Source: Amphiscolops sp. MND2022 (Eukaryota). From it: a DNA stretch of 64,000 nt. Of the stretch, positions 33,490-64,000 are shown piece after piece. The notes beneath the pieces are model-generated. The model made no database searches, was not told the DNA's origin, and worked only from the letters and a program-made list of their open reading frames with translations. Positions within the stretch are counted from its first letter, which is position 1. Each line of letters starts with the position of its first letter. The stretch is taken from positions 11,904,001 to 11,968,000 of the forward strand of contig OZ076414.1 of assembly GCA_964187785.1 (NCBI GenBank), in the 5' to 3' direction. Position numbers and translations under genes: made by a program.

Positions 33490-33492
33490 ATT

Positions 33493-37629: not shown

Positions 37630-38072
37630 ATGTTGTCAATTTAAATACAGGTAATGTTTTTCTAGCATAGCTTTTGAACTTTTCTCTAACTAAAAACGTA
37701 TTAGAACTTTTTTCAACTTTTTGGTACATTTAACTTTCTAACTGAATTTTACATACCTGCAACAATTTTTTTCTTAAACAAGACATTCACTGATAATATA
37801 CTGTACTGACCTACATTAATAACCAATAGTATTTAGATGTTTATAGAATGTTCTAGAATGTACATTTATTTATTATTGAAGGATTGTAAGTCTCTACTTC
37901 CTCAGAGAGAGAAAACTAATAATCAGTACTTGGTTGACTTCCCTTTTGTTCTACTTCTACCACCTCGAACTAGTTGTAATAAAGTTAGCTAGCTAGCCTG
38001 TCTCTTAGCCGTTTTTTAGTAAGTTGTGAATACCATCGCCACCTAAAATAACCAACTATAAAAAGCAGCACA
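37630..38072 (+). repeat. Probable 5' LTR of C (left end approximate)
   Basis: Ends in CA before a PBS-like TGCTGCGACT (38076-38085). Confidence 0.4.
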
Positions 38073-39912: not shown

Positions 39913-42590
39913 ATGAACTCCTCAACAACAACCTTTCTACCTTTTCAAACTCCCGTCATGAAAAATGCAAAAGTAGTAAAATTAGAACTAAATCCATTCC
40001 TATAAAACAATATTTCCCATTATACACAACCACTCCCATTTGAAAATGAATATCATACAATTGAAACAATACTTCTTCTTAGAGAACATTTGGACACATA
40101 CCTCTTCTGTATTAGATACAAAGTTCTAACCATCACTACAGAATACCCAGTTTTTCAAATCTCCTTTCCTCAACAAAGACCTAATTCATCTCATATATAC
40201 AGAAGAACAATAAATCCAATAAACCTCTACGTTCCCATTAAACAAGTTTTTCACGCTTTTTTAAACATTGTGAAAGACCACAACCTAGCACTTGAAACTC
40301 CAAAATTTAGTCCAAATGCACTCGACGAACTTGAACGATATATAAATAATTTCGAAGTAGAAATTATTGAAAGATTAGTTAATCCTGAAGACAATCCTCA
40401 TCATTGGTTACAAACTGATAAATTACGAATGCAAAATTTCCTCTACCATTATTTCAAGGACTTAACCTTAAATGACCAAACAATTCCTCAGATCAAAGTA
40501 ATATCTCTATTCCTCAGAAAATACTTCAGATTCAATTATCAACTATTATGGTCACAACAAGATCAACCTGCTTTTACAGCATTTCCAAATCATTTTACAG
40601 CTGACGAATGTTTACCATTCATCATAAGTGAACAAAATGAAAATCCTTATTTCCATAAACCACAACTAATTACAAAACAAACTTTAGATTACATACGTTT
40701 TGATCCTCTATTAATTACAGAAAATGATCTATTTGCAGACAATAGACCTTATCACTATGAGCAAAGTTCTCAAAGTTTTCAACAAAACTTAAATTTTAAC
40801 ACCAATAACTATACTGAAGATGATAATATCAATAATGAAAATACACTCCAACAACAAAATCAAAATGAAAACTATAATGATGATAATCAGATCATTGAAA
40901 ACAATGCAAGTGAGTTTACTACTCAAGAATCTACAATTGCAACACATAATGCATCACAATCCGGAACATCAACATCAACACACACTCAATCCTTTAGAGT
41001 TCCAACTAGAGTTGTATATCAAGGACAGAATACACATAATCCTCAATCTCACTTAGATACATCTCCAAACCGTAATATAACTTTCAACCTTCCATACACA
41101 GATGAAACAACACACGACGAAACTCATGACACATTACATGAAGATTTTCTAACCACATCTCATGCTCAGAATACTTCTGTTAATGTTGCATCTCCAACAA
41201 GAACTATTCCTGATTCTACAAGACACATTACTCGACCTAGATATGATCCTCCATCAATTCCTTCTGCTTTCCGCTCAGATAGATCATTTTCTTCAAACAA
41301 AAATTGTAATGATAATCCACAAACTTCCAATCAATATTACGATCCATTCAATTAGAAGTTTTATCGTCCATCAAATACAAATACTAATGCAAATATCAAC
41401 CAAAATCACTCTCAATTTAATACGAATTCAATAACACAAAACCCTTTCATACAATTATCACAAACCAGTACCATCCTTTGTATCAAATGCATCCAAATCC
41501 TAATCCACTTCCTAATCCAAATCCAAATCCATTACCACAAAATACAACTCAACATATACCTCCTCAACTCACACAACAAGTAGCTCCTCCACTCCAATAC
41601 TAACCAATGCCACAAGATACCTTTATGAACATGGCCGCTTCAATACCATAACATTTGAAACCTTTTGATGGTTTAGACCATTCTTATACCCCAGAAGAAT
41701 ATCTTCAACAAGTCGAAGCTAGATTAACCTTCGCCATAGGTGAAGAACCTCAGAATAATCCTATAAAACACAAATCCTGGCATAATAGACGCATGGCTTA
41801 CATACAATGTTCTTTAACTGGAACAGCTCTCGATTGGTATACTAACCTTCATATATCATATAAACAACAATGGAACTCCTTCGTACAATTATTCAAAAAA
41901 CAATTTTCATCTCAAAAAACAGCTTACTACGCCCAAGTAGAAGCTATGTCACTCATGAAAAAAGATAATGAAACAGTACGCCAATTCGCCCTTCGAGTAC
42001 AACAGTTAGTTAAAAAGGGATGGTGCAATGAAAATGCAGCTACCATAAACCTTAAAAATAATGAAATATTTACAAAAGGATTACCCAAAAAACTAAAAGA
42101 TTTTGCTCATAAACGACAAGTCAAACATGTATCGACATTACTTGAACCTTCGATACCATTTCACACACTTGTTAGACATGTCGATTCTGAAGACATTGCT
42201 AATGAAAAAATTAGAACTAACGACTTAGCTCTAGAAATAAACAAAGTATCGCTTGAAGATGATACTAACAATAGAGAATTTGAACATGAAGATCATATAA
42301 TGGTTACTCAATCTGGAGACCCAAATAACAAAAGCAAACCAGCCTATAAAAAATATTGTTCCTATTGTCACAAAAATAATCATAGTATTTCAAACTGTTA
42401 TCAAAAACAACGTGATGATGAATACCAAAAATACAAAAACCAAAGATCACGAGCTCCTCAACAATCTTTTGTACAATATTTTTGCAGTAAACCTAATAAC
42501 TCACAAGAAACTCGAAATGACAATACAAATACTTACTCCCCAGATAACGATCGTAACAAATATTATCAAAATTACTATAACGATAGATAC
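39913..42590 (+). pseudogene. gag: gag of C, 5' part (N-terminal domain, capsid-like core, CCHC knuckle)
   Basis: NPHHWLQTD; KPFDGLDHSYTPEEYLQQVEARL; ETVRQFALRVQQLV; CSYCHKNNHSISNC. Confidence 0.9.
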
Positions 42591-42901
42591 TGATATACCA
42601 GATATCTATATGTTTCTTGATTTTATATCATTCCCCCAACCCCCCGTATGTCTAGACTTTATAACAAAAGCACCTCATTAATGTAACTGATTAATATTCT
42701 AGATGTAAACTTGATGTACCTACTCTATATTCTGTACCATGCATTTTGATTTAGAACACAACTTGAATTTGATCTTCACCAACCAGTTGTCTTCGCTTAA
42801 GGCCTAATATCTGCAGCTCTATTAGTGTCTCTTAAAGTACTAACATCAAATGAACATTCCATCTCTATCCCAATAATCCCTAAAAAAACACAAGTACTTT
42901 A
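42591..42901 (+). repeat. 5' LTR of D (311 bp)
   Basis: About 9-10 substitutions plus one ~5-bp indel versus the 3' LTR (counted by eye). Confidence 0.95.
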
Positions 42902-42903
42902 AC

Positions 42904-42913
42904 TGGTGCGACC
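42904..42913 (+). promoter_or_regulatory. PBS of D (TGGTGCGACC); cognate tRNA unassigned
   Basis: TGG starts 2 nt after the 5' LTR. Confidence 0.75.
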
Positions 42914-42981
42914 ATCTCGTTTCTTTCCTTTTCTACAACCAATTTTGTAATACAAATTTTCTTCTCTTTCACACAATCTTC

Positions 42982-43132
42982 TGTACTAATCACCCAAAGT
43001 GATTCGACCTCGTAGTCGGTACAAACGCAATTCTTCTTCTGTACTAATCACACATAGTGGTTCGACCTAGTAGTCGGTACATCAAACTTTCTGTTCTAAT
43101 CACCTTTTGTGATTCAGCTCCGTGCTGGTACA
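42982..43132 (+). repeat. Three tandem three-way-junction RNA elements in D leader
   Basis: TGTAC-[AATCAC/GTGATT]-[CGAC/GTCG]-GTACA units with variable loops. Confidence 0.8.
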
Positions 43133-43271
43133 CCCGTTTCTTCTCTTAAAATCATTTTTCATACTTTAACTCCCTAATATAACTTCCTTTTCATTTTTCT
43201 CTAACTCATTTTTCTAAACCACACTTCTTAACCTTAACTTCTCTTCTTTTCACAATTCTCCATATTGTTTC

Positions 43272-43417
43272 ATGCCTTCTTTGAATGACTCCGTTTGTAT
43301 TTGCTTAATTCTCCTCTACATTTTTGGTTATGCGCAATTGTTTTGCTCCTTGTTGACAAATTCACTCTTCCTTTTATTCCACATGCTTTTGATCAATACC
43401 GAACATCATCACTCTAA
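43272..43417 (+). pseudogene. Membrane uORF of D (one T missing from the run at 43321)
   Basis: Repaired: MPSLNDSVCICLILLYIFWLCAIVLLLVDKFTLPFIPHAFDQYRTSSL. Confidence 0.55.
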
Positions 43418-43894
43418 TAATTATTCATGTTCCTCACCGAAAATCTTGCCACTATTATCCTTTTCGTTTCCTATATCTTTGCCATGATTGTTTTTTTAAT
43501 GCTTCTCATTGAAAAAATCGTTGAATCTCTTTTCAACTAACTTCCCTTTCTTTTCCCTTTCCCCCTTTTTTTCTTTCCCTATCCCCTCCTTGATTTTTCC
43601 GCTTATTATATTAACACCTTTCCTACCTTTCACACCATTCTTCTTTTCCCCAATTTGTATGAACCTCCTGTTCCTTCACCCCACTCCCATCCTTGCTCTT
43701 TTTCAACTTTTTTTCCTTTCTCTTTTCTTCATAACTACATCCATATAATTTTATCCCTCTCTTTTCTCCTTCTACACTTATCTTCGCCTCAAAATCCATC
43801 GCTATTTTCACCCTCTTCCTACTGAACCATCTATTCACCCTGACGTTATTATGGATTGGATTTGGCTACATTTCAATCCTCATAAACACTCCTA

Positions 43895-46665
43895 ATGACT
43901 GATTCACATCTCCTTATCCCCCTTCCTTTCGCCTCAAACACCTCTCAACGTATTACCCGTGATACTTCACACACTCTTATCCAATTTCTCAACAATCTTA
44001 TCTATTATTCAACCACTCTTCTTTCTTTTGAAACCTACCCGGAAGATATTTACACTACGCCACTAATTCGTGAACATCATGATTCTTATTTATACTATAT
44101 TGACACCCATTCGCTTATTCCAAATTCTGACGAACCTCCATTTTCTATTCCTTTCACTTCTCCCACAACTCGCTCTGATACTTTTCGAAAAAATATCCAT
44201 CCCAATAATATTCAATTTCCAATCGCCCATGTATTTACAACTTTTCTAAACAATCTCCAAGAAAAAAATAACCTTCTACCTAAACATGTTTTTAACCCTT
44301 CCTCCATTCAAGAACTTCTTCAAAAGGAATCCCTTTTTGACATTCCTAATATTGAACAATTTCGCACAGTTGAAAATAATCCTCACCATTGGCTTACCAC
44401 CGATATACTTCAAATTCATCAATTTCAATATCAATTTTTCCAAAATATTACCCTCAAAAAAATACCAAAGAACAAATTCAAATATACTCCCTTTTTCTTA
44501 GAAAATTTTTCCGACATAATTACCAACTAGTTTGGCATTCAAAATTTCAAAATGCCTGCAAAAATTTTCCTCAACAATTTACTACCGATGAACTTCTACC
44601 TTTTCTCGATACTCTTGATAACCAACATCCCCACTATTATAATCTTCTTGATTTTCATTCTTCTCATTTTGTATTTCTTACCTATGACTCTAATAGTATT
44701 GATAAAAGCCTCAATCTTTCTCCTCCTGTTCGTCCTTATTTCCATCAATACAATATCCCTCCTTCGAATGAGACAATTTCTACAGTTTCTATTCAAACTC
44801 TCCTGTGACAAATCCTACTTCATCTTTAACTCAACATATTTCTCCTTCTGCTTCTCAAGACACATCTTTAAACCACCACAATCCTCCTTCTACTTCTCAA
44901 ATCACAACAATTAATAACAATCCCCCTCTTTCTCATTCACCAAATCAATATACTACCCCTTCTAACACTCCACCTGCTGTTATTAGTAATCCTGTTCAAC
45001 ATTCAACTTTCCAAATTCCTACATTAAACCCAATTCCACTTCCTTCAAATACTACTATTCCCACTCAATTTCTTTCTCAAAACCCTCCATCTTCTTCTAC
45101 CCAAAACCATTCTAATTTTCAAACAACTTCTTCCACTACTCAATCTACCTCATATAACCCTTATATTTCTCTTTACCCTACTTTTCAAAACTTCCCCACT
45201 ACTTCTTTTCAACCCCCTCCAAATCCCCCTAATTCGCTTCCTCCCACTTCCACATTATCTTTCAACCCTTCTTCCTCTTATCCTTCATTTCCTTTTCCAA
45301 CCACTCCTTCTGTCCCTTTGCTGCCCTCTCCGACCCTATTAAATTTTTTGATGGCTTAGATCATACTTATCCTCCAGAAAAACTCTTAGCCCACCTCAGT
45401 GCACGTGTAACATTTCAACTTGGACCGCAACCTGTAGATATTCAGTCATATTTAACTTGGCATTCTCGTCGAATGACTCTCCTTTATTGTTTCCTCACAG
45501 GAACTGCTTCCAATTGGTATGACCGTCTCCCACAAGTTTATAAAGATGATTGGTCATCCTTTCTTCAAATTTTTAAGAACTAATTTTACTCCCAAAAACA
45601 CGCATATCATGCTCAAATTGAAGCCCTTTCCCTTCTTAAAAAAGATAATGAAAGTGTCCGTCACTTCGCTCTTAAAGTCGAAACCCTTGTAAAACAAGGT
45701 TGGTACAATGAATACCCCTCAACGATTAATCTTAAATGTAATGAAATTTTTACCCGTGGTCTCCCCAAAAAATTAAAAGATTTCGCTAACAAACGTCAAG
45801 TTAAACATATTTCAAGTTCATTAGAACCATCAATCCCATTTCATTCTCTCGTTAATATGGTTGATTCCGAAGATATTACTCTTGAAAATATAAAAACTCA
45901 AGAACTTTCCCTTGAAATTAACAATTTGTCTAATACCTTCCAACAGAATACAACAATTCTAGATTCTACTCCAGAACCTCCACAAGTTCAAGTAATGGAT
46001 CCTAATAATAAACCAAAACCTCAATTCAAAAAATATTGTTCATTCTGCCATAAAAATAACCACTCTGTTTCAACTTGTTTCCGCCGTCTTAATATGCTTA
46101 AAGAATCAAAACCACAGTCTAGATCTCCGACTCCTACATTTTATCAACATTTTAAAAATCCTTCAAATAAACCTCATTATTCTCGCCACCGTAGTCGAAG
46201 TTATAGTAACCCTCCTCGCAAATCTTCTCGCGACACTCGATATCAATCTCGTTCCTATTCACGTTCACATTCACGTCCCCGTTACAATACTAAAACCTAC
46301 CCCGAACATATTCGCCCTATCACAATCGTGATAGATCTTGATATGATAAACATTACAATCACACTCCATATAAACCATATTCTTCTACACGCTCATATTA
46401 TAGTTCTAATTCCTCTCGTAGTCCATCTAAGTATTACCCTCGTTCTCGTGAACGTTCTTCAAATTTTAACACCTCTACCTTCAACAGATACAATTCTCCT
46501 TATCGTCCTCCTTCTAAACCACGTAATGATCGCTATCGTAGTAGATTTCATTCAAACTCGCACAACCATCCTCAAACCCAATATAAACCCTCTATAAATC
46601 TTACACATCCATCTACACCACCTCCTCAAACAAACTCCCAAACAGAATCTATTTTTGAAATCAAT
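43895..46665 (+). pseudogene. gag: gag of D (~920 codons; several frameshifts)
   Basis: NNPHHWLTTD domain; FDGLDHTYPPE core; CSFCHKNNHSVSTC; RS/Y-rich tail. Confidence 0.9.
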
Positions 46666-49600
46666 ATGTATCACCCTAATATTTCCTCGCCTCAATCTTC
46701 TTCCACTTCCACTGAACATGCTAATGCTATTACACCTTCCACTTGGTTCGTTAATTTATATAATTTCAAACCCAGTGAAGATACCTTTATCCCTTCTAAA
46801 TTAGAACTCTTTTTTCTCCTTGATAGTGGTGCATCCATTTGTGTTTTAAATTTACCCACTTTTACCATTTTAGCTGAACACTTCTTAAAATGTTCAACAC
46901 ATTCTCCACATCAAAATGAATACAAAACGTTAACTGTTGCCAATAAATCCGAAGTACCTATACTTCATAATCTAATACTTACACTCCATACCTCTCTTAA
47001 TGGAAATACTCGTACCCTTGTTATTCCTTTTGCAGTCGCAAACATTAAATACAACATACTTGGAACTCCCTTCTTTGAAAAATATGTTAAAACTCTTAAT
47101 ATTGAAAACATGTTCCTCACATTTAACACTCCACACGAATCTTGTATTAACACCCTCCCTTTTACAGCTCATAAAGAAAAAGATTATCCATTTTTTTCAT
47201 ATATATACACAATTAATGTTAAAAACAAAATTTATTTTAAATCCAACGCATCAGAAATTATTCATTTTCCTATTCAACCGACACTCCCTCTCACATTTAA
47301 AACTTCCGATAATGAAGTTATATTTCCTTCTACACCTCATCCATTTTTTAATACACGCTTCAATTCCACCTTTAATTTTCTTCAAGTATACCAAAATGTT
47401 AACACTGAACCTTCAAGCTGTTCTGTCATCATTCAAAATATTACACATCACTCCGCTACCCTTACTCCTGGATATATTGGATATATTGAAGTTCCTGCCA
47501 CTAATATTCAACCCCCTCACTATAAAGTAAATGATGTAAATTCTTTAATACATACCGTATTCCATTCTTATTAGCCTGATCTTTCTGAACCAAAACCTCC
47601 CCGTAGACGTTCTTCTCTCCGCAATCCTCACGTTGAAATAAACAATTTGCAGCCTTCTCAAATTTTAACACGACCTCTTCCACCATTACCATATTCACCT
47701 GATACCCAACAATTTCTTAACAAATTTAAATTTCAATATTCACATGTTTCTGATCAAGAATATTTACAATTGTGTTCCATCCTTGTCAAATATCGAACAT
47801 GCTATGCAACACATAAAAATGACGTTGGCCAAATAGCTACCCCTTTTAGAATTCGCCTTAAACCCAATGCTAAACTTCAAACCCAACGTCCTACCAAAGT
47901 TCCTATTCATTATAGAGAAAAATTAAAAAAACTCCTTGATGAATTAGAAAAACACAATATTATTCGCCAAATTGGTTCCACCCCCTCTGACAAATCCATC
48001 TATGGTACCACGTTTTTAAATCCTCTCATTATTATACCCAAAGGAAATGCTATTAAAGTTGTTTTAGACGCACGTCATCTTAACTCTAATACCGATCAAT
48101 CTTTTGAATCTTGGCCTATTGAACCTTTAGCTCCCCAACTTGCACGCGCTAACAAAAAATTTAAATCCGCTATTGATCTTATGTATGCTTATGCTCACGC
48201 TCCCTTAGATGAAGAAACTATTACTTTAACCAGCTTCTCCTCCGGTGACAAACTTTACGCTTTCATTCGTGGATTTTATGGTCTTAAAGGCCTACCCAAT
48301 TTTTTTTACCAAACAAATGTATTCATTTTGTCAAAAACTTATTGACCAAGGCTTTGCATTAGTTTATATTGATGACATTCTTCTTCTCGCCCATACCAAA
48401 CCTCATATGTTAAATTTAATAGAACAACTTCACCAAATTTGTCAAACAAATAATCTTAAAATTGCTCCTGAAAAATCCTTCTATATTCTTCTCACTGTCA
48501 AATTTCTTGGACATGAAATTGGCAATAACACCATTAAACCTATTTCTTCCAAAATTGATGCTATTCATCAATTAAAAACACCTACTTCTAAAACTGAATT
48601 AATGCGCTTCATCGGATCAATGAACTTTTACTCTAAATTTATCAATAAACTCCATATTTCTTTGAAACCTTTTTACACTCTTCTCCATGATGATGTTTCA
48701 TTTGAATGGACTCCTGATTTAGACAAACTCTTCAATCAAATTAAACTTTCTCTTTCCAAAGATGCAGAACTTGCTATTCCCAACACTACCCATCCATTCT
48801 ACATAACAGTAGACGCCTCTTTAATAGGTTTAGGCGCAGTTCTATTTCAACCAAACTCCAAAAACAAAATGCAAATAATTTCATATAATTCCCGTATTTT
48901 AACAACCCAAGAACAAAAACTCTCTACTTATAATAGGGAACATTGTGCTATTACTTTTGCTCTTTCCCAATATGATACTATTGTTATTGGCTCCAAATTT
49001 CCTATAACTGTTTTTACAGATCATAACCCTATTCTTTTCCTCTTCACACGCAAAGGCAACCTAACTCCTAGACAATGTAAAGCTCAAATGTTATTAACCA
49101 AATTTTCAAACTTGCAAATCATTCATACCGCTGGTACAAACCTTACTGTAGCTGATATGCTCAGTAGAGATTTTTCAACTATTAATGCTAAAACTTGCCA
49201 ACTCCAACACAAAACTCTTCCTCCTCAAATTGATTTCCTACAACTCAAACAAAATAATATTTTGAAACCTATTCATTATCTCGTAAAACATGAAGATGTA
49301 CTTCCTACACAAAAAAATGATTCACACCTAATCTTAGCCGATTATGGTGATGATCAATTTACACTCCGTATCCAAGATAAAGACAATATTGTTAAATATA
49401 CTCCTCTTGACTCCTTTTCTTTTCAATCTGTTTCCTCATTTTTAAATAAATACAAAAAATCTGTCAAAAACAAAGTTAAAACTCTCCTCCAAGAAAACCC
49501 TCTTTTAAACTAAACTGATTTATATGACACAGACGATCCTGTTCTTAAACGAATTCCTCAACAATATTCACAAACATCTCATGAACATCACACCCTTTTT

Positions 49601-51436
49601 ACGGAAGTACAACATCATTATTTTAACGACATTAATCTGTCACAAGATATCCTAACCAACTTTATAAACTCCCCTCCTATTATTAATAATACTCTTCACA
49701 GTAATGCTATAACACCAACTTCCCCAAAAACCATAAATACTCAATCTTTGCCATTTTTTGACCCTTCCTTCTTTGCCCACCGTAAGTCATTTGACAATTT
49801 TTTCCTTCCTTCTGACACCTTCTTAACATTACCCATCCTACTTCAAGCTCAAAAGGATGATCCTGTTCTTTCTACAGTATATACATGGTTAAAACAAAAA
49901 CAGAGACCTCACTCTTTGACTCCAATTATCAAAGCAAATTCCTTTTTATATACATATTACAAACAATTCCAACATTTATATATCGACCCAAACTCTCACC
50001 TCATCCAATATTATATCCCTAATTCCCGAATTTTTGAAGAAATTTTTATTAAAACTCAACCCTCGATTAACCAGACACGTATATGTTTACCATTTAAACT
50101 TTTCTATGCCGCATTTAGTAAAACACATTCTCATGGCCACTCCGGTGAAAAACTCTATTAAAACTTTTAACCAATTTTATTTTATTCCTCACCTACCTTT
50201 ATGGTTCTCAATCTTCATCCATGACTGTATTGACTGACAGACAAACAAGCATTTTCCAAATAAACCCCAAAACATTTCTCCTCCTCTTCCGTTTTATGAA
50301 AGCGCTACTCACTTTAATTACCGAATTTCTATGGACACTAAAGGTCCTATTTCCCCATCTTCTCAAAACAACTCCTATATTTTTGTTATTATTGACGCAT
50401 TTAGTCATTTCGTCGTTACTAACCCAGCTCCTAACATTACTTCTAAATATGCAATTCAAACTCTTCTCCATCATTGGATCACAAAGTTTGGTCCCCCTCA
50501 GTATCTTGTTACAGATCGAAGTACTGAATATATTAATCAAGACAAGACATGACTCATCTCTGTTCTCTCTTTCATATTAACCATTCACCTCGAACTCCTT
50601 ATTCACCATGGACCAACGGTTTGGTCGAAGTCCAAAACCGAAATCTTGGAACTCATCTCCGGATATTTTTACAAAATCCTCCTACTAATTGGTCATTTCA
50701 AACTCAAATGTACGCATATGCTCATAACACAACACCTCATTCTCAGCTTAAACTTTCTCCATACCAGATTGTTTTCCATACCTATCCTCGAATACCTCTC
50801 ACCTTTTCCCTTAATCTACCTCGAGATGCTCAAAAAAATTGTATTGCAACTTATTGCGAATCTCTTTCTCCTCATTCACATTATAGTACTCAAGATCTTA
50901 ACCCCTTTTTCCATTCTCTTCTTGACAAACCCATCTCCTCATGGCTTTTAGCAGCTGAAACGGCAATGTTAGAAATATATTCGACTGTTCACCGCCATAT
51001 AAACCATAAACTCAATTCCCAAAGTTCTACATTTGAAACAACTCACTTGAAACAACTACTTCTTAATACATTCGTTATCCATACAAATTTTAAACCCGTT
51101 AATTTTTCAAAAAAGCTCAAACCTCTCCGAATTGCCCCATATAAAATACTTAAACATCTTTCTGAAGTAACATATGAACTCCTTTCTCAAGATGGCTCTA
51201 CATTTCAAACTCATCGAAATCATATTCTACCATTTTACCCTAAAGAACCTAGAATTGTTCCATACATTAAACATTACCATTCTACCCCTTCTCTTATCGA
51301 CAACCCTGATACTGACCCTTACCAAGATATCTTTTCTCAATTCTCCTCCTTAGATTTACAACATAATTCTAATTCTTCTCAAACTCCTCCTTCCTCAAAA
51401 TATAAACAATTTAACAGCTCCCCCTTCCATTCCTAA
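46666..51436 (+). pseudogene. pol: pol of D: PR-RT-RNase H-INT (stops at 47572, 49511, ~50235; frameshifts ~48310, ~50155, ~50545)
   Basis: LDSGAS; IDLMYAYAH; YIDD; VDAS...E...TDH; HSHGH..C..C; D-D-E core. Confidence 0.95.
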
Positions 51437-52151
51437 CTACCAAAACCTTTCACATTATTCTTCCTTACAAGATCATTTAAACCATTTTTCTTCCTCTACT
51501 AACAAGCCTTTACAATCTTCTTCCTTTCAAGATAATCTTGATAATACAATAGACTCTCACGATTCGGATTTTGAAATGCTTCCAAATCCTATTTATTATT
51601 CAAACTCCTCAACTAATTCTTTCCCTCAGTTCTTTCCTCGTGTTGCTGATTCTCCTGATATTTCTTCATCCCCTTCACTTGAATCCCCAAGTGAATCAAC
51701 TTACCAACGAGCTCCTCATTCCCCATACAATCTATGTTCACTCCCCCTTCGACATTATAATTCTTCCAATCCAAACATTAGCTTCCCTCCTTGATTAATA
51801 TTCATTTTTTAATTGGATTTTCTGCCTCCTATTGTCCTCAGTCTAGACTTTTCTTAAGTCTGACATATGACAATCTAATTAACCACTTTTTTCTAGTTCC
51901 ATCTCTCCATTCTATTTCGAAAAACACAAGCTGCACGGTTGCTTTCATCGAGACTTGTTGTCATAAAAAACCATAAAGAATTCGAGAATTGTTGTCATAA
52001 AAAACCATAAAAAATCTAATCTTCAACTCTTTTCCTTTATTTCATTCATCATTGTATCTACTTCCAATATTAATATCTTCTCATCCCTTCCTATTTAATA
52101 ATCATCTTTAACAAATTTTCTTTTGTTTCCATCCTGGATCTCACTGTATTT

Positions 52152-53477
52152 TTGTCCGACTCCTCCTCTCGAACCTATTCTACCGTTTCAACTGATACTA
52201 TACCTTCTTTACAACCTCCTGTACCAACTCAACAACCTCCTTTAAATCCTATCCCAATCACCCCTTCTTTAGATACTACCCCTGTTAATACTCCAACCCA
52301 CACTCCTCTCCAAACTTCTGTACCTCAACAAACTCAGACTTCTTTAACTCTTCCACTCTCTGATACGGAATTTCCTTTTGACGTAACCCCTACTCATTCT
52401 CCACCTCCTTCTTCTTTTCATATTCCTGATCCAAGTGACATTAACCCTACTCTTCTTCGAAATTTTATTAAACCCACTCTTCCTCGTTTAAAACTTATTC
52501 CTATTTCTATAAAATCTTTTCGCCGTCACTCCCAATTAGATAATTCTCTTTCTATTCCTCCACCTTGTTCTCATACCTCTACTCAGTCTTCATTACCTCC
52601 TCCTAAATCTCTTAAAATTCCCGCACTTGAATCTCTTGACTCCTCACTCCAGAAAAAATCAGATTTAAGTGAAATCGATTCAGCTACTTCCTCTCTTCTT
52701 TACCCACGTCTTCCGCTTTCAAATTCTGCTTCTAAATATACAACTTCTTCCTTAGATAATCTTCTTGATACTTCCTCTGAATCTACTATTCGCCATCCAC
52801 TTCGCCACAGATATAATCTTTGTAATAATCGTCGTCCTTCTCCTTCCCTTGCAAGTACTAACTCTTCTCTTTTACGCCACCACGCTCAATCTCTTTCTTC
52901 AGACTCCCTTTCAAACGCAGAAAACGCTCCTACCTCCGGAATTGACACTGTCTTTTCCCAACGTTCCTCTATTTCTTCTTATAATCATACTGGTCACCTT
53001 TTCTCTCGCCCAACTTCTCAAAATTCCAGTATTCTTTCTTCTGACAATCACTTACTTAACATTGATCTTACCACTGATCAATATTCTACTCCTCCTACAC
53101 CTAATCGTGTCGATTATCCTCTAATTGTAAATCACACCCTTGTTAAAAGCCCCCGCCAAGATCCTCGCTTTCTTTATCTTGCCACTCACAAACTTAATAC
53201 AAATCCTCATATTTCCGACACACGTAGTCGTAAAGAATTTCTCCGCCTGGAAAAAACAAGTTTAGAACTTAAATTTGAAATTAACGTCAAATTCCATAAC
53301 TTAAGTCCTCATCCCATTCCTTGACATACAACAGTAAACTTTAAATCTCTTCCCCATCCTTTTATTGCCACCAATTTTAGTCTTTTTGTTAGTGATCATC
53401 CACCATTTCGTCTTTTACACGGTTCAATTACTTTTCTTAATACCGTCACCTTTTTGAAATACACTGCCCAATTTTAA
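52152..53477 (+). pseudogene. Accessory ORF X of D (internal TGA at 53322; no obvious ATG)
   Basis: 390-aa open P/S/T-rich ORF, continuing in frame to LKYTAQF*. Confidence 0.75.
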
Positions 53478-53478
53478 A

Positions 53479-56252
53479 ATGTTCTTCCTTTTCTTTCACT
53501 CACTCTATTATTTTCTTTCTTCCCTTCTCTTGGTAGTTTCTCAAAGTACTCCATCGTCCGATCATGTAGATCCCAATGATCCTCATATTTCAGACCTTTT
53601 AGTCTCTCATTATGATTGCTCTAAACAACACAATTTAAGACAGTTTAGTCTTACTCGAGTCCAACCATGCGTTCAAGCCCCCTCTGCTTTTGAAACAACA
53701 CGCGCTATTGTAAATGTTTTTGTTCGTGCTAAAGCTAAACGCCTTCGAGCTTGGACCTGTGAAGCCTACGTAAAACGCGAAAAATTTGTTTGTGCCCAAT
53801 CTGATTACAAATATCGTCGTCATGATCGTACGGACTATCACTAAAATACCATGGAACGTCCTCGTACTGTTGATCCAACAGAATGTAAACACGCTATTCG
53901 TCATTTAAACGGAACTCATAATCCTCAACTTGATGCTTTTAATTATTCTAATTCTTTTACCTTTTTCAATGATATTCAAAAACAACGCCTTTTAGAAACA
54001 AAACAACCTCCTTTTTGTATTACTAAACTCAATACTTATCACTATGGTGCTTTTGCTTGGATCACCAATTCACAATTAGTATTAAACTCAACTCTGAAAG
54101 AAAAAGCTGTTTGCTGGGACCGCTATGAATATATTATTGAAAAAGATAGTTGGTCTCTCATCGTAAAAGAAATTGAAATTACTTATGATGACAAGGAAAA
54201 TAAACCAATATATCATGGACATACTTTACCTTGCCTCCACGACGATGGTTTCATTAAACCAGCAATATTAACACCTTTCACCATTGTTTGGTTTCCTGAA
54301 GACCTTTGTTTAATTTTCTCCATTCATTCCTTTATTGGTCGAATGTCTAAACTCAATAACCGTTGTTGGCTTGAAACTGATCATTTTTTAAATAATAATC
54401 ATTCCTCTACTGTGTCAACCAATACTCCTTATCATGATACCAAATCTCAAACACGTCTTTCTCGCTTTGAAATCTTCCCTGAAAACAAAATGTTTTGTAT
54501 TAAACCTACTCCTCTACATCTTACACAATATCCTGACCTGTTTGTAACGTACACCGAAGGTTTTAATATGCAAACTGGTAAACCTAATCCTCTTCAACTT
54601 CCACAAGACGAACAATACAACCAACTAACTACACAGTTAATATCCGGAAAATTAGTTCATACTAAAGATGAACTTCTTTTCCCTGCTCTAAATTCTTCAA
54701 ATAACTTTGCCACCATCGATTATGAAGCTCATATTAACACTAAACTTGACTATTCAATAAATCATGTATTTAAAAGCATGTCTGTTGCTGAACTTAACAC
54801 TCTTCACACTATATGTGAAGTCGAACGTACTCAACTTTTAACCATACTCGCTATGTCTGTAAAAATCCACAACTTGCTGGTTTCCTCTTAACCCAAAATC
54901 GTAGCAACTTTTTATATGTTGAAGGCTCTACTGCCTGGTTATATGACTGTCCTCATCACCTTTCACCCCTCTACATTGCTGACCAATGTTATGACAAGAT
55001 TCTTGTCAATTATCTTGATACTGTCATGTATGTAGATCCTATTACACGTCAAACTTTTGAATATGCTAACCAAATACCTTGTGAAAATAATCCTCAAAAT
55101 GTTATTTCTCTTGACCCAGACACTGATCAATATTACGTTTTAACTCCTCAACCTATTAAAAAAGATCCCCTTCTTCTTTTTGAACCAACTCAAATTCAAC
55201 CCGCTATTAGCCCGAATACTTTCACCGCTCAAGACGCTGGCATTTATTCACAAAAAGAATTAAAACATTTTTGGAATCGAGTTTTATTTACTAAACACTC
55301 TGATAATACTCTCCAGCTTCTCGGAAAAGCTATCAGCTATGAATTTATGAATCAACAATCTGACAATTCCTTTCCTAGTAATCCCTATCGATCACTCCGA
55401 ATTGGTCTTCATGACTACATGTTAAACCTGACTCCATTTTTCTCTCCTGACTGGTTTACTGATGCTTTTATAAAACTTTTTGGCTATCCATGCTATATTT
55501 TAACCCAATGTGGAATATACTTCTCTACTGCTCTTTTCCTACAATTCGCTTTCAATACACTCTTTAGTATTTACCGTTCCTTCACTGTTCGAAATCTACT
55601 TAAAAAACAAATTTCCGTAGTAACTGCCTTAGGATTTGGTTTCTTTGGCACTATTACCAAAACCATGATGACTGCTATGATTAAATCAACTCATTCATCA
55701 TCAGATTCTGACGATTCTGATTCCCCTCATTCCCCATTAGCAAAAAATAGTACCACGTCTTCCAATCCTAAACCTCGTCCTCCTAAATATCATACTAATA
55801 TTAAAACAAAACTTCTTAATTTAAAAAACAAAAATCCCATGCAAAGATTTTCACCAAACTCTTCACCTATTAAACCCCTCTCTTCCTCGGTATTTCATGC
55901 TACTCCCATTAATCCTACACAACCCCCTAACACCGAAGAATATTCACCTCCACTTCCAAATTATAATTCTCACCTTTCACCTCATAATAATCTCTCTTTA
56001 CAACACTCCCAATTACCTCCATTATCTTCTCCTCCATATTTTCATAATTCTCCTCTTCCTGATGACACTAATTGTGATAACTCTTCTACTGATTCCCCCA
56101 TTCATAATCTCTGGCAATCTAGTAAAATTTACCCTCCTACTCCGCCACCAATTAAAACTAATGACATTCCGTTAACCTCTGTCAATAATATTTTTGACCC
56201 ACCTGACAGTCCTGTCAAAGTTTATTCTTCTTCTCGCTTCCCTCCAGAATAA
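53479..56252 (+). pseudogene. env: env of D: chuvirus-G/gB-like class III fusion glycoprotein
   Basis: Signal peptide; xYDC...N...SL..V..C; AWLYDC...CYD..V...YVDP.TR....C; hydrophobic TM segments; long P/S tail. One stop (53842) and one frameshift (~54885). Confidence 0.85.
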
Positions 56253-56589
56253 TATATTTACCTTTAACTTTATTAATTCTCACTCTGAATCTTAAATACC
56301 CTAACCTAATTAAATTTACATACTAATATTGTACCTCTTTTACATAATAATTATAGTTCTTTTAAAACTACTTCCTTTTTCATTTGTCATCATTTTTGCT
56401 TTCACTCTGGTCACTCCTACTCACTTTCTCCAAACAATTTTCTTGAACTTTTCTATACATCTTACTTTCATCTAAACTCATATAATCTTTTATAAATAGA
56501 AACCGCACATTCGTATAACTTTACCCAAACGCACATTCGTATAATTTTCACCCTTTGAACTATTCAATTTTACTTTCTCTCCAAACAAA

Positions 56590-58086
56590 ATGGCCACTAT
56601 CAATCCTGATGAAGAACTTCTTTCTAGTATCGCATCTTTGTCACCCCCTCTTCCCTTAAATCTGGTACTCTTGATCTTCGTCTTGCCAATGATCCCCTTC
56701 CTCCTAATTCTAACAATACTCCAGAACCTACTGTAAATAGTAATTCCACCACTTCTCAATCTAATAAACCATCTTCTACTAATCTTAAATCTCGTCATTT
56801 TCCTACTCCACCTCCAAATAATCTTCATATTACTATTGATAATCATCCCATTCCTCCTAAAAAGAAATATAATATTCTCGAAGATCCTGTTTTCATTGAT
56901 TCTGGTATTTTACCTCCAACTCTTCACCCATTAAAAACTCCTTCTCAATCTAATACAATGACTGACGAATTCCTCCGTACTCATCCAAATTTTAAAGCTA
57001 ACCTCCCTTCATTGTACATGACCCCTACTTCTTATGAATTTCGCTTTCCTCAAGATCGTAGTTTTGACCACTATGTTGCTTATGCTTCCAAAAATCTACC
57101 ACAACTCGCCTATTGGCAAAACAATCGTGTTCGTTTCTTCCAATTTCAATTCAACCTTCTTAAACGAACCCAACATGATTTAAATACCCAATGATATAAC
57201 CACAACTCCTTCTGTTAAAAAACTTCACCATCAAACCTATCAACTTTTTCTTGAAGAAAAACACCCTCAAAACTTCATCTTCCAAAATCATAAATTTACT
57301 TCTCCATTTTCATACCATACTCACTATTCTTTGAACCACCTCTTCACTATTGGAACAATTCGTAACTATGATCCTGTCAAACAATATTTTATTCTCTCTT
57401 CCTATCATGATCCTACTCGTCCGTTATTTGTTCCTCAAGAAGCACTTAATGTCAATGATGATTTTCTACTTCCTACACACATTCCTAACGCTGTTCAAAA
57501 TTTCTTCCCAAAAATGAATAAATTAGTAGAAACGCCTCTTGATGATCATTCTCGTTCACTCTACACTGCACTAGTTCACAAACACTATTCTCTTGCACAA
57601 CTCAATTTTATTATTGCAAAACTTTCCTCTTTTATTCTTAAAAAACAATACAAATATTTCTCATTAAACGTCTCTGATGAAATCCTCCAAACTCTTCCTA
57701 AACATACTCCTCCTAATACTACGTCTGAACCTTCTCACATTACAGCAATCCCTCCTCCATCTACTTCATATGTTCTCCAAACTACCAATCCTAATGTTTG
57801 CATCAATTCCTTCTCTTGTCCAACGGACAAATTCGTATCAGAAATACTTAACCTTCTCCGTCCACATGTTGAAATTGCTCCTAATACTGATCCTTTTGTT
57901 ATTTTAAACCACATCTTTGACACCTTCCGTAATCTTCAATCTCTACTCCAACTGCACTCAACCGATATTCAAAATTTAACGCTCTCTACAATCCATGTTA
58001 ACGATTTTTTTAAAAAACTTGTTTTACTTGAAACTCCTCCTCAGTTCACTTCTCTCCAATTGGTAAACACTCTTTTTCTCTTTTAA
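56590..58086 (+). pseudogene. Accessory ORF Y of D
   Basis: ATG at 56590; PPKKKY; blocks conserved with B. Confidence 0.75.
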
Positions 58087-58704
58087 TTCCTTTTTCAAAA
58101 AATTTTTTTTCAATCGATTTAATAACAAATTTCCATCTCCTCTCTCTTATCTTTTTCGACCTCTTATCCAATTAACATATTTATTATATCTTTCACTCCT
58201 TATTAACATTTATTATCTCTCTTTCTTTCCTTTTTGACACTTCTTCCTATTGTTTCCTCTATTCTTTAACATTTTCACTTGACATTTTCACTTGTTCTTT
58301 TTTAATAAACGTTGACACTATACTCTTAATGTCTTCTAACATTATTAGCTTTTAACAATCTTTTTTCCAATTCTCTCTTTCATTTGCTTTTCCAACTCTC
58401 TCAAGATCACTACTCTCTTGAACATCAAATTCTAAGTCTTCTACTGAACATCAAAAATTCAGTCTTCATCTTTGTCACCCTTATACTATCAGGTATAATA
58501 TATCTCAAATAACTTTCAAAATTTTCAAACACAAATTCAACAAGTATTTTACACCTATTCCTTTTCTTTTTCACATCTTCATTTCCATCACATATTCCTC
58601 TTTTAGAATTAATAATTTCACCACAACACTCTCTCTATATTAAATTGCTCCACATACTATAAAAATAATCATAATACAAAATCATCAATCATTTTGTTTT
58701 AGTA

Positions 58705-59397
58705 ATGACATCTTATCCTCCTTCAACATTGGCATATCCTCTTCTCAATCAATTTCTTGACTCTTCGCTGCCATTCCCTGTTTCTTCCACTTCTTCAACA
58801 TTCACTCTTCCAACTGTTGCCACTACATCTTCATTATTCCCCATTTCTTCATCATCCGCATCACCCACTGTTGTATCTGTGACATCATCCAATGTTGCAT
58901 CTGTAACATCTGTTGTTTCACTATCACCCATTTCTTCTGTCTTCAATACTACAGCTTCAAAGACATCTGCCTCAACTACATCTCCAGTGCTTTCTTCTTC
59001 TATTTCGTCTCCAGTTTCATCAATCGAGTCTCCTTTCTTCCTCCATCCCAAAGATGCTGTTGCCACTTCCCCACATTTCCAACAAAATTCAGTCGTCCGC
59101 ATATTGACCCGTGATCTTCAACAGAAAAAACCCAAGCATCCCAGACGTCCACCGTTGCCTTCCGATGTAATTGGTAAACCTGTTCGTCGACTGGTCCACA
59201 CAGTGGTCTACAAACAAAAGTTGAACCAGTATATAGATGCACTCAAATTGTATGAAAAACACATCGATGAACTTATTGAACAAACTACTTTTGAACTGAA
59301 TAAAACTAATAAGAAAACCCCCTTCCAAATTGAGAAAATTCAAAACGCCTCAGCCCATGCAATTATCCCCTCTATCTATTCAAATCCCCTCCCATAA
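58705..59397 (+). CDS. Accessory ORF Z of D (230 aa, S/T-rich plus basic helical C-terminus)
   Basis: Intact ATG-TAA ORF in the last coding position; no homologue in the window. Confidence 0.55.
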   Translation: MTSYPPSTLAYPLLNQFLDSSLPFPVSSTSSTFTLPTVATTSSLFPISSSSASPTVVSVTSSNVASVTSVVSLSPISSVFNTTASKTSASTTSPVLSSSISSPVSSIESPFFLHPKDAVATSPHFQQNSVVRILTRDLQQKKPKHPRRPPLPSDVIGKPVRRLVHTVVYKQKLNQYIDALKLYEKHIDELIEQTTFELNKTNKKTPFQIEKIQNASAHAIIPSIYSNPLP

Positions 59398-60905
59398 TTG
59401 CTATAATCATTATAATTGTTTCTCCTATAATACTCTCCCTTGTTCACATGTTCCTGTCAACTATGCTATTCATTCAACTTTTCCTCCCCCTCCACCTTCC
59501 CCGGCCTTAATTCCCATTCGCATTGAAGCCATAACCCCCACTTTTCAACCCCCTCCCCTTTAAATGATTTGGACCCATTGGTAACTTCGTTAAATGATGT
59601 TGACTAAAGAGTCCCTGCTTAAATATTTTTTTTGAATTTTATACATACATATTTTGAACACATTCATTTTGTCTGTTTTCAAACACATACTTTACCCCCC
59701 ATGTTTTTCTTGACCCTTATAATCTCTACTTTTGTGCTATACATTCCATTTTTACTAATTCTTTCAAAATTTCCCCTCTAAAATTTCCAATTTTCTTTGC
59801 CGAAATCTGCGTGTAACTTCGGTTCTAACCAATCAGTTTTTCCAAATTCTATCTTAGCATAATGCTTTTGACCTACTTACTCTTACATGATGGAGCTTCC
59901 ATTTTTTCCCTTTTCTTAACCATTAATAAACTTTTTAAACCATAACTCCATTTTTTTATCCTTCTTCCCAAAAAAATTTTTTTTGACTTTACTCCTCTTC
60001 AACTTCAGTTCAAAACATATCTCCTTTTTAATCTTACTCCTACTAAATCACATGTTCAAACCTACTTACCTCGGTATCTAACTCTTCTTCACTTGCTTTT
60101 TGATCAACTGAATTTGCGTGATCAACAAATTTTTTCCCTTTTCTCAATTGAAAAAATACCTGCCACGTGATATAATTTTGAACACATATTGACTCATATG
60201 GCTTTGTTTTCGCTTCAACTTTGTTTTTTTCATGCCGCCCTTTTGCTTTAATATCTGACATCTCATTTTAGCTAATTAAAAAGGCCAATAAGACAAACTC
60301 TTAGTTGCCAAACAACTAAGAATCTTCGGCTTCCTGCATGAATTTCTTCGTCAATCAGGCTGTCATTTTTTGCCATATTTGACTTTTCACGTTTTCCTGC
60401 TTGTCGATCAAATCTTTCTACCGCCTCGGAAGATACTAACTCATTCGTCCTGTATAAAATTTTCATGAAATCTGAAACAATTTTGCTGAATTCGTAACAA
60501 ACATGAACATGTCGATTTTCAAAAAATTGAACTTAAAATAAAGAAAAAAATTTTTTTCTTTCCCTCTTCTTCTTTTTCTCTCTTCTCTCATGTATTCCTG
60601 ACCTATTAATTAAAGTAAATACCTTAATCCCTTGAAGATACTTTCATTTACACTAAACATCGAAAAATGCCCGTAACTCACGATTGGAAAGATATGAAGA
60701 CAACTCTATAATTAATTTTTTTTATTATTCACAAAATATATGAAGACAACTTTTCAAACGAAAACCTCTATTGCAAGATTATTAAAATCCCTCCTTTTTT
60801 CTCTTTTTAAATATATTGAACTAGACTCCAACCATTTTAATGAAACCCCAATTTCCAAGATACCTTTTAACAATAACTCCAAAAATTTTTCCTTTATCTT
60901 TTTTC

Positions 60906-60919
60906 AAAACCCGGTCGGA
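60906..60919 (+). promoter_or_regulatory. PPT-position motif AAAACCCGGTCGGA preceded by a T-tract
   Basis: Immediately 5' of the D 3' LTR; identical motif precedes the A LTR (8753-8766). Confidence 0.65.
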
Positions 60920-61225
60920 TGATATACCAGATATCTATATGTTTCTTGATTTTATATCATTCCCCCAACCTTTGTCTAGACTTTTTAACAAATGCACCTC
61001 ATTAATGTAACTGATTAATATTCTAGATGTAAACTTGATGTACCTACTATATATTCTGTACGATGCATTTTGATTTAGAACACAACTTGAATTTATTTTT
61101 CACCAACCAGTTGTCTTCGCCTAAGGCCTAATATCTGCAGCTCTATTAGTGTCTCTTAAAGTACTAACATCAAATGAACATTCCATCTCTATCCCAATAA
61201 TCCCTAAAAAAACACAAGTACTTTA
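60920..61225 (+). repeat. 3' LTR of D (306 bp)
   Basis: See 5' LTR; followed by TSD ATAC. Confidence 0.95.
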
Positions 61226-64000
61226 ATACAGAAATACTGATAGACATCGTAGCAATAGTAGAGAATATTCGCAAAACAACTATAGATCAAATTCTCGACA
61301 AAGATATTACAATCGCTCTCGAAGTCCATATAGATCTCGATTTGATAATTATTATCAACGAAGAACTCCATCTAGATCTCCATATAGATCTCCATACAGA
61401 AATAACTCAAATTACAGATATAACTCCCGCTCAAGATACAGATCTCGTTCTCAATCACAAGGAAACTCCTTTAAACGATATAACTATCCATATAGATCTC
61501 CTTCAAGACCTAGAGATTTTAGATCACGATCTAGAACACCCTCACGAAATCGACAACAAAACAGAATAAATCAAGTAGACGTTAAATCTACAAAAGACAA
61601 TGATAGTACAAAATTTGAAAACCACACCTGTCAAACAACTGAAATCGCTAATACAATTACTCCTTATAGTTAGTTTTATCCACCATATGTTCATGCTTCT
61701 GAAACAAAATTAGAAATCTTTTTCCTCTTAGATACTGGAGCATCCATATCTGTTTTGAATTTACCAACATTTCATGTGATTTCCAAACAATGTTCCAACC
61801 AATCTTCAAAACAAAAGAGCCAAAACTCTTACAGTTGCAAACCAAACTGAAGTACCAATAATACACTATATTTCGATAACCTGTTTTACTGAAGTAAACC
61901 ATCAAACGCGATCCTTCAATATCGATTTCGCTGTAGCCAATATCAAATGCAACATTCTTGGGACACCCTTTTTCAAAAAACACATTCAAAATATCGATTT
62001 TCAACAAAATATTATGACTTACATAGAACAACATCCAAAGCTTTCAACAAAAACAACTTTTTCCACCTTTACAGAAAAAGATTACCCATAAATTTCTTAC
62101 ATTTATACTATTAAATGTAAAGAACCAATTCACTTTAAACCCAGGTCAGGAAAAACCATACATTTCCCAATTAAAAATAATTCAAATCTACATTTTGAAC
62201 TTGAAGATAATACAAAATTTTATCCAACAAACCCATATACATATTTCCTACAAAAATTCAAAGATATTTTTCATTTCTTGGATATGATAGTTAATAAAAA
62301 AAGCAAAGACTATTCCGCAACCATAATTCAAAACTTTACATCTTACCCAGCTACATTGCCACCAGGAATCATTGGATACATAGAAATCCCTATTACTCAA
62401 ACAACTCCTCCTCACTATAGAGTTAATGATGTAAATTCACTTATTCACTCTGTAATACATGCGTATCATCCTGATACCACAACTCCAATTAAACAAAATC
62501 CATATGCAGATATGAACTTATGTACTAAGGTAACAAAATTACAATTAGAAATTAACAAAATAGAAATCAACGACAAAACACTTCAACTTCCTATACCTTC
62601 TGTTACTGAAAATCTTCGACCCTCCGAGAAAATTCGAAAAGATTTTCCTCCATTACCATATTCTACAGAAAACCAACAATTCATAAAAAAGTTTAACTTT
62701 GAATACTCAGATCTAACCGATACAGAATATGCAAAACTCTGCAATATTTTGATTGATAATCAGAATTGTTAGGCCAAACATAAGAACGACGTAGGAAAAA
62801 TTTCCACTCCCTTCCGAATTAGAATAAAAGATAACTGTAAACTTCAAACACAAAGACCTTCTAAAGTACCAATTCACTACAGAGATAGACTGAAAAAACT
62901 TTTACTAGAACTCGAAAAATACAATATAATAAAACAAATTGGTTCCGCCTCAGATGAAAAACACACAATTGGAACAACATTTTTAAATCCTTTAATTATC
63001 ATCCCCAAAGGAGACGCAATAAAAGTTGTCTTAGACGCAAGACATTTAAACTCAAACACCAACCAAGAACTTGAATCTTGGCCTATTGAACCTTTAGGTC
63101 CTCAATTAGCTAGAGCCAAAAAAAAATATAAATCAACTATTGATCTAATGTATGCCTATGCTCATACACCATTAGATGAAGAAACAATCAAACTTACAGG
63201 ATTTTCATCCGGTGACAAACTATACGCCTTTATCCGTGGGTTTTACGGATTAAAGGGACTTCCAAACTTGTCCACAAAACAAATGTCAACTTTCTTTAGA
63301 TCACTTATAGACAAACGTTCTGCGTTAGTGTTTATAGATGATATTTTACTACTCGCAAATGAAAAACAAGAAATGGTTGAACTTATAAAAGAACTACATA
63401 AAATAGCATCTCGAGAAAATCTCAAACTTGCACCCGAAAAATCATTCTACATGTTACTCAAAGAAAAATCCTTGGACACGAAATTGGCAACAACACAATC
63501 AAACCAATTCCATCCAAAATTGACGCCAATAAAAGAATTCCATCACCAAAAGAAAAGAACGATGTTATGCAATTTCTTGGCAGTGTTAACTTCTATTCAA
63601 AATTCATTGAAAAACTTCATATAAACCTTAAACCATTGTAGACATTACTACATGATGATGTTAAATTCCAATGGACACCTGAATTAGAAAAAATGTTTCA
63701 AAATGTAAAAAATGCAATGACAGCAGACACTGAATTAACCATACCCAATACAACGCATCTATTTTTCATAACAGTAGACGCTTCGTTAGTTGGTTTAGGC
63801 GCAGTCTTAGTCCAAATGAACGAAGAAAATAAAATGAAAGTAATTTCTTATAACTCCAGAATTCTTAACACACAAGAACAAAAACTTTCAACTTTAGACA
63901 GAGAACTTCTCGCAATAGTTTACGCATTACAAAGATATGAATTTTTGATCATTGGATCTCCTCATCCCATATACATCCTCACAGATCACAAACCTCTACT
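61226..64000 (+). pseudogene. pol: C resumed: RS-rich Gag tail, PR (LDTGAS), RT, start of RNase H
   Basis: Open frame 61227-61670 (RSRSPY repeats); DTG at 61731; IDLMYAYAH; FIDD; VDAS. Confidence 0.95.

Follow-up and report, generated by a model that had tools for sequence, protein, structure and literature searches.

Structure of the locus

The stretch of Amphiscolops sp. MND2022 DNA analysed here (contig OZ076414.1, positions 11,904,001 to 11,968,000; hereafter the window, 64,000 nt in length) contains, at 42591..61225, an 18.6 kb retroelement in which gag-pol and env are accompanied by three further genes, designated X, Y and Z. Judging from its sequence, the element is, with reasonable probability, a decayed member of a Ty3/gypsy lineage that has multiplied recently, carries five genes in the order gag-pol, X, env, Y and Z, and has an expression strategy similar to that of complex retroviruses. 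Its features lie on the forward strand. The 5′ long terminal repeat (LTR; 42591..42901), which ends in TG...TA rather than TG...CA, and the 3′ LTR (60920..61225) are 95.5 % identical by blastn (9 substitutions in 306 aligned bases and one gap), and the target-site duplication (TSD) ATAC is found on both sides (42587..42590 and 61226..61229), which bears out the bounded element described in the initial annotation. The element is nested inside the gag of a relative belonging to family C (see below), the gag region of which occupies 40006..42590 on the same strand, while its gag/pol sequence resumes to the right of the insertion (61226–64000).

The primer-binding site (PBS; 42904..42914) is formed by 11 nt complementary to the 3′ end of the host tRNA-Met(CAT); a gene for this tRNA in the same genome matches the sequence TGGTGCGACCA at its 3′ end. 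Three leader repeats of approximately 55 nt (42978..43136), each folding into a double hairpin (z −1.4 to −2.1), constitute a candidate packaging or dimer signal. The plus-strand primer position (60900..60919) is occupied by a U-tract and AAAACCCGGTCGGA instead of a purine tract; this sequence is kept in the family of the element (D), and a related form is present in the related families B, K and C.

The element was proposed to be complete, which holds for its boundaries but not for its coding capacity, as every gene is broken in comparison with a natural copy. The lesions comprise eight frame-changing indels and five stops in gag-pol, one stop in X, one frameshift and one stop in env, and three and two frame-changing indels in Y and Z, respectively. 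For this reason, natural copies elsewhere in the genome were examined.

A gene plan maintained in four families

The gene plan gag-pol, X, env, Y, Z is common to four families, namely D, the family of the element under study, and its relatives B, C and K in the same genome (1.07 Gb searched), from which 32 copies were fetched (D 15, B 6, C 8 and K 3). The identity of D to B or C reaches 52–54 % in Pol, 54 % in Env and 33–40 % in X and Y, while that of D to K is about 52 % in Pol. Selection was assessed between subfamilies by Nei–Gojobori ratios of nonsynonymous to synonymous divergence (dN/dS) for the pairs D4–D10, B–K and pairs within C, which amounted, in this order, to 0.10, 0.19 and 0.13–0.14 for X, to 0.06, 0.14–0.15 and 0.11–0.12 for Y, to 0.25 (confidence interval 0.17–0.35), saturation and 0.14 for Z, and to 0.11, saturation and 0.18 for the N-terminal domain of Gag, with values of 0.03–0.07 for env and 0.02–0.04 for reverse transcriptase (RT). 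The bootstrap limits remained below 0.4 in diverged pairs, in which synonymous divergence reached up to 1.4. These low ratios point to three constrained accessory genes (X, Y and Z) and a novel Gag extension. That the five-gene plan is shared by four families and is under purifying selection we regard as nearly certain, and the inherited complex genome plan suggested previously is thereby confirmed; X, Y and Z are neither absent from nor unconstrained in other copies (dN/dS 0.06–0.25), as they would be had that suggestion been wrong. At least 85 % of the gene lies in one open frame in 25/32 (X), 28/31 (Y) and 26/31 (Z) of the fetched copies, a degree of intactness that speaks less strongly for the plan than it may seem, since it is inflated by the choice of copies in which env or pol has a long open frame.

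A search of the genome with D env yielded at least 117 matches of 91–100 % identity, and searches with the other families yielded at least 150, at least 150 and at least 50 matches. The D copies are colinear across 18.6–18.8 kb, half of those having an LTR pair (7/14) carry identical LTRs (100 %), and 4 bp TSDs flank 12 of the 13 D copies whose two ends could be read. The identical LTRs and TSDs indicate a recent spread of the family, in which the window copy is an older member.

Nested insertions are common in the host genome; one D copy is flanked on both sides by inverted D LTR/leader sequence, having landed within or next to a second D element. The window itself holds two further decayed relatives. 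Relative A (1–9050) is approximately 75 % identical to D at the nucleotide level, with its integrase (IN) 80 % identical in amino acids to the nearest scored genome matches, and retains X and env; relative B, at about 23000–38000, retains the region annotated as an upstream open reading frame (uORF), X, env and Y, as had been reported for both. A decayed GC-rich (48–51 %) gypsy-like element of different composition from D, with gag-, protease-, RT- and IN-like remnants, occupies about 9300–21000 on the minus strand.

Gag-Pol and the placement of the lineage

The gag-pol region (43895..51794), broken in the window copy, forms a single open reading frame (ORF) of 2,634–2,731 aa (about 2,640) in less decayed D, B, C and K copies. 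This single ORF was present in 4 of the 10 first-fetched D copies, and at least 85 % of it lies in one frame in 5/15 D, 2/6 B, 8/8 C and 2/3 K copies. The uORF corresponds to the first ~480 aa of this frame and is not a gene of its own. Consequently, the gene order proposed in the initial annotation is retained from gag through protease (PR), RT, RNase H, IN, X, env and Y to Z, though without a separate uORF, and of its three to four accessory genes only X, Y and Z remain, the fourth being part of Gag.

The polyprotein begins with the novel N-terminal domain of ~280 aa, for which no match was found in Atlas, followed by a Pro/Ser linker, the capsid, one CCHC motif, an RS-rich stretch and PR (motif LD[ST]GA), and continues with RT, RNase H, a bridge of about 330–336 aa, IN and a tail that ends in a YNLR-type motif in D, B and K. 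Pfam matches above the cut-off follow the gypsy order (PF03732 for gag, then PF00078, PF17917 and PF00665), and the RNase H adjoining RT scores as Ty3-type (84 bits). The bridge between RNase H and IN (336 aa) has no Pfam match, and no second RNase H is recognized there by Pfam. A dUTPase-like segment suspected by eye between PR and RT was discarded, having no Pfam match. The whole element is extremely poor in G on the plus strand (GC skew −0.35 to −0.59), which gives rise to long ORFs in alternative frames, such as a 320 aa frame inside IN.

The LTRs, the TSD, the tRNA PBS and the position of gag ahead of PR, RT, RNase H and IN are all Ty3/gypsy features. Among solved structures, RT matches Ty3 best (133 bits, E 1.9e-37), and it scores 75 bits (E 7e-20) against foamy virus Pol and 37–40 bits against gammaretrovirus-type sequences. 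In this comparison with Ty3, foamy virus and gammaretrovirus-type sequences, RT is thus nearer to Ty3 than to retroviral RT, and the lineage is not a member of Retroviridae. Retroviridae, Loki and Odin are defined by a dual RNase H, that is, a tether and a new RNase H (PMC9040795). In a quick RT tree of 64 rows, built without curated clades, Odin or Loki and with 10 of 65 matches dropped for short coverage, the four families grouped together (SH-aLRT 100) within an unnamed 17-row clade (SH-aLRT 100, stem 1.3) that also holds other env-bearing families of the same genome. No named database protein exceeds 32 % identity to the lineage, and a cluster look-up of 10 proteins returned no names.

Other env-bearing elements of the host were also noted. 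The sister families F, G, H and I measure 17.9–19.5 kb, with LTRs of 1.4–2.1 kb and a PBS matching tRNA-Met over about 18 nt; at least two short ORFs separate pol from env, and another two follow env. The last ORF contains a TRAF/MATH domain in F, G and I (E 1e-21, 1e-22 and 4e-10), and this MATH gene is possibly an antagonist of immune signalling. Family E is shorter (12.2 kb) and contains gag, pol, a PF24664 env and one orphan ORF of 524 aa after env.

Env and the X protein

The env gene (53479..56252), also broken in the window, encodes a protein with a signal-peptide-like start, a C-terminal hydrophobic region and a long Pro/Ser tail; its ectodomain contains 14 cysteines, the spacing of which is matched across the four families. 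A PPxY motif, known as a late-domain motif, is present in the tail in all four families. Env matches PF24664 with 82–96 bits (D 95, B 82 and C 88) against a cut-off of 27. The assignment of a class III env put forward earlier holds at the level of this Pfam family, and Env is presumably a class III fusogen of the gB/chuvirus type, the class being derived from that family and from PMC13524379; it has no sequence match in PDB, which weakens the assignment.

The N-terminal part of X is disordered, while its C-terminal ~120 aa are predicted to fold into two helices and a five-strand sheet (predicted local distance difference test, pLDDT, 73; predicted template-modelling score, pTM, 0.60). Searches of this domain with Foldseek against PDB and BFVD gave nothing at E≤0.001, and VIA gave no clear match among 48,161 chains (best Z 2.8, root-mean-square deviation 3.2, 39 aligned), which does not by itself make the fold a new one; X as a whole has no Pfam or Atlas match. 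The only motif kept across all four families in the otherwise diverged disordered part is YNLR, which occurs in X of 8/8 representatives (as Y[ND]LR in 92 of 120 homologues) and persists in degraded form near 52812 in the window copy.

A YNLR-type motif binds the H2A–H2B acidic patch in prototype foamy virus (PFV) Gag (PMC12125541) and in lamin A (PMC12527912). A 32-residue X peptide modelled with host H2A–H2B reached a score of 0.74, the best control reaching 0.02; the mark used for such scores was attained by 51 of 78 solved pairs and 2 of 108 mismatched ones. The modelled contacts join X 223–229 to H2A 60–68 and 96, and at least 65 % of contacts are reproduced between runs, with a partner pLDDT of 48–49. 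Based on this model, X probably binds the acidic patch via YNLR. Two considerations detract from this proposal. Because similar complexes have already been solved, the model demonstrates likeness rather than binding, and it may be a memory of the solved PFV Gag and lamin complexes, peptides moreover lying outside its calibration. Furthermore, Pol of D, B and K likewise terminates in YNLR, so that the tether could be a protein other than X. The host carries its histone genes at many places in the genome, as tandemly repeated units of about 3.63 kb.

It may also be considered that the gene plan and the CUG start of X (see below) are correctly described, while the element moves only within cells or from cell to cell, Env and X serving assembly with X as a matrix- or tegument-like protein and YNLR being incidental. 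The proposed sharing of a messenger by X and env would suit such a role, as would PSAP, a late-domain-like motif with which X begins in B, K and C. PSAP is, however, absent from D X; YNLR is retained by four families within a diverged disordered region and is modelled on the acidic patch, and the dN/dS of the env ectodomain (0.03–0.07) likewise speaks against this view. We therefore consider this explanation unlikely, although it is the alternative that survives best.

Translation of gene X

Gene X (52134..53477), interrupted by one stop in the window copy, contains no methionine codon and likely starts at CUG (position 52134, ATC CTG GAT). It lies in a stretch of 1,611 nt free of ATG in all frames (51868..53478), which ends at the env ATG; the element contains on average 11.9 ATG per kb, and its next longest ATG gap is 583 nt. 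Methionine is absent from X in 7/7 representatives, and 89 of 120 database homologues lack internal methionine. The sequence A-N-N-CTG-GAT is found at the X start in all 32 fetched copies and in the window copies D and B, where the codon before CTG varies (ATC, ACC, ATA, AAT and ATT) with A at −3 being constant. CTG makes up 1–5 % of Leu codons in these elements, and none of 161 control Leu columns (conserved in five representatives; gag-pol, env and Y) is CTG in more than one. The 20 nt D start motif has 177 exact copies in the host genome, compared with 0 for the control.

The depletion of AUG was tested in seven representatives by synonymous resampling, which keeps the protein fixed and therefore controls for amino-acid composition. 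X contains 9 out-of-frame ATGs versus 30.2 expected (0, 0, 1, 2, 3, 1 and 2 observed per representative; 3.6, 3.8, 2.0, 5.6, 5.8, 4.6 and 4.8 expected; P=0.004, 0.002, 0.29, 0.019, 0.079, 0.004 and 0.039), while in other ORFs 25 of 27 rows are at or above the expected count. Non-AUG starts depend on a context of A at −3 with G at +4, and they feed into leaky scanning (PMC3542737, PMC5902531). The conserved CTG context, along with the depletion of AUG up to the env AUG, makes it likely that X is initiated at CUG and that env is reached by leaky scanning.

Several observations weigh against this interpretation. The depletion is weak in D10 (P=0.29) and K1 (P=0.079), one to three out-of-frame AUGs with ORFs of 1–17 codons persist in D10, B, K and C, and the seven representatives amount to only three independent lineages. 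A hairpin downstream of CUG was sought and found in none of four (z +1.8 to −1.2). The decayed window relative A keeps ACC CTG (5751–5756) but has lost the +4 G and the following bases. In family C, CTG is preceded by 44–53 open codons and an AG, so that a spliced or longer X start is possible in that family.

The upstream frame in C and the non-significant depletion in D10 and K1 could also be understood if X were the second exon of a spliced gene, as is HIV rev or CERV, the spliced accessory gene of the LTR element Cer1 (PMC10309623). X would then be initiated at an AUG located in the preceding exon and would function in RNA export, for which the basic patch in its C-terminal domain might be invoked, while env would have a spliced RNA of its own and the lack of AUG would reflect the Ser/Pro/Thr composition. 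However, composition is controlled by the protein-keeping resampling, and an exon would not require a rare Leu codon, with A at −3, to be kept without change. An in-frame stop is found 6–8 codons upstream of CTG in those D, B and K copies that were tested, with no AG between the stop and CTG, which excludes an upstream coding exon. Moreover, coding constraint starts with CTG itself, 137 nt ahead of any AG in D4, and the first 12 X codons of D4 and D10 differ by six synonymous and no amino-acid changes. A spliced-exon origin of X thus appears improbable. Frameshifting or readthrough from pol into X was ruled out by the stops lying between them.

The sequence GTCTAGAC, located in the D LTR (42650–42660 in the window), recurs in the pol–X spacer near 51840 in 5/5 aligned D copies and is a candidate splice acceptor or internal-promoter element.

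Genes Y and Z

Gene Y (56590..58060; 430–495 aa in relatives) belongs to no known family and, like gene Z (58705..59606; ~300 aa in D, 150–158 aa in B, K and C), is broken in the window copy. Between them an intron is predicted (58063..58702), with a donor-like G|GTAAAC just past Y and an acceptor-like TTTGTTTTAG separated from the Z ATG by two bases. Of the 31 fetched copies that include the end of Y, 30 have a donor-like G|GTAA 3–58 nt past the Y stop, the background being 7–10 occurrences per 18 kb element. The Z ATG is preceded by a pyrimidine-YAG site at a distance of 2 nt in D, 87 in B and K, and 116 in C. All spacer ATGs fall within the predicted intron in 5/5 representatives. The presence of an intron between Y and Z is accordingly quite likely, even when set against the lack of the donor in the decayed window relative B and the failure of searches for a conserved major splice donor in the leader and a conserved acceptor upstream of Y.

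Neither Y nor Z has a Pfam or Atlas match. The predicted fold of Y reaches a pLDDT of 32, and the best 150 of the 693 matches in its profile search are all unnamed and mostly fragments; Z can be aligned between D copies and between B and K, not detectably with C, its correspondence across families being positional. The lack of Pfam, Atlas or fold matches for X, Y and Z and the unalignability of Z might suggest that these genes are functionless passengers, derived either from host fragments that were captured or from nested elements, but this explanation is largely refuted by the dN/dS of 0.06–0.25 at synonymous divergence up to 1.4, by the identical gene order in four families and by the mostly open frames (in a biased sample), and it retains very little credibility.

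Proposed mode of expression

Accessory genes and layered control of translation are regarded as typical of complex vertebrate retroviruses. In the element described here, the full-length RNA would be translated into one Gag-Pol polyprotein that is cut by PR, whereas a shorter RNA starting after pol, for which splicing, trans-splicing and transcription from an internal promoter are candidate origins, would yield little X and much Env, as X would be begun at CUG and ribosomes missing the CUG would continue scanning to the AUG of env. Spliced-leader trans-splicing affects 30 % of genes in one acoel (PMC9911081). Env with its PPxY tail would allow particles to bud and to enter other cells, most likely in the direction from soma to germline; whether the particles are infectious is judged an even matter from sequence features. 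Tethered to the H2A–H2B acidic patch, X might act in the nucleus, either as a tether of the integration complex or as a regulator of provirus chromatin. Z would be made from a spliced RNA, and Y and Z may be further regulators.

We tentatively propose, as a possibility slightly short of an even one, that the lineage is an undescribed deep branch of Metaviridae that has reached a complex-retrovirus organisation independently, combining a class III fusogen, a CUG-started nucleosome-binding X translated along with Env through leaky scanning, a spliced Z, a total of three accessory proteins without known family (the C-terminal domain of one matching no solved fold) and a MATH-bearing sister clade, and that is spreading at present within a single animal genome.

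Comparison with known systems

Gypsy elements with gB-type envelopes are already known. Chary and Hayashi (eLife 2026; PMC13524379) described 'ancient errantiviruses', in which a chuvirus-like env of the gB type is found on gypsy elements across animals, with an RNase H and a 'mini' domain in the bridge. They share with the present lineage the Ty3/gypsy pol, the gag-pol-env order, the chuvirus/gB-like env, and a multi-copy and recent state, but differ from it in that here gag to env spans ~12.4 kb, X occupies a 1.3–1.7 kb gap and Y and Z follow env. Since that survey was confined to regions of up to 10 kb and POL–ENV gaps of up to 1 kb, the present plan would have been excluded from it, and the word 'accessory' has no match in its main text. 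More generally, surveys with size limits, a rule that env adjoins pol or ATG-based gene calling are blind to both the plan and X. The suggestion of an undescribed lineage does not hold for the envelope type, while the five-gene plan was not found described in the literature searched (subscription papers, Repbase, Dfam and GyDB being outside its scope), and the available text of the acoel genome paper (PMC9911081) mentions neither gypsy nor envelope. What is new here is the X gene lacking methionine, the conserved CTG at its putative start and the AUG depletion before env.

A non-AUG first ORF with an AUG-free body and leaky scanning, as proposed here, is characteristic of rice tungro bacilliform virus (RTBV) ORF I–III (PMC5902531) and of aquareovirus S7 ORF1/FAST, which is CUG-started (PMC3542737); neither is an LTR element, whereas here the downstream ORF encodes a presumed fusogen and the arrangement is predicted from conservation. 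No env-bearing retrotransposon with a non-AUG or CUG start or leaky scanning was among the papers listed in the literature search.

Very large gypsy elements with extra coding capacity and a long single polyprotein include the planarian Burro/GYPSM1 and the plant Ogre (PMC6431247). In Burro, however, env lies inside the polyprotein together with MATH/BIR/BCL2 domains, which is not the case here, and the size of Ogre is mostly due to its LTRs, whereas the LTRs of the present element are ~0.3 kb and its extra genes are separate ORFs. Cer1 with CERV (PMC10309623) and the bdelloid ORF3 elements (PMC5408684) similarly combine a gypsy-like element with a functional or captured extra gene, but each has only one, and CERV is spliced.

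Foamy viruses share with the lineage the YNLR acidic-patch motif (PMC12125541), accessory ORFs after env and a large size, fish foamy-like endogenous retroviruses reaching 17 kb (PMC6431247). Unlike foamy viruses, the present elements have a Ty3-type RNase H beside RT and a PF24664 env, and carry the motif outside Gag, namely in an accessory protein and in the tail of Pol. If the proposed interpretation is true, a complex organisation arose again outside Retroviridae, with another class of fusogen and with the same chromatin-gripping motif as that used by foamy viruses.

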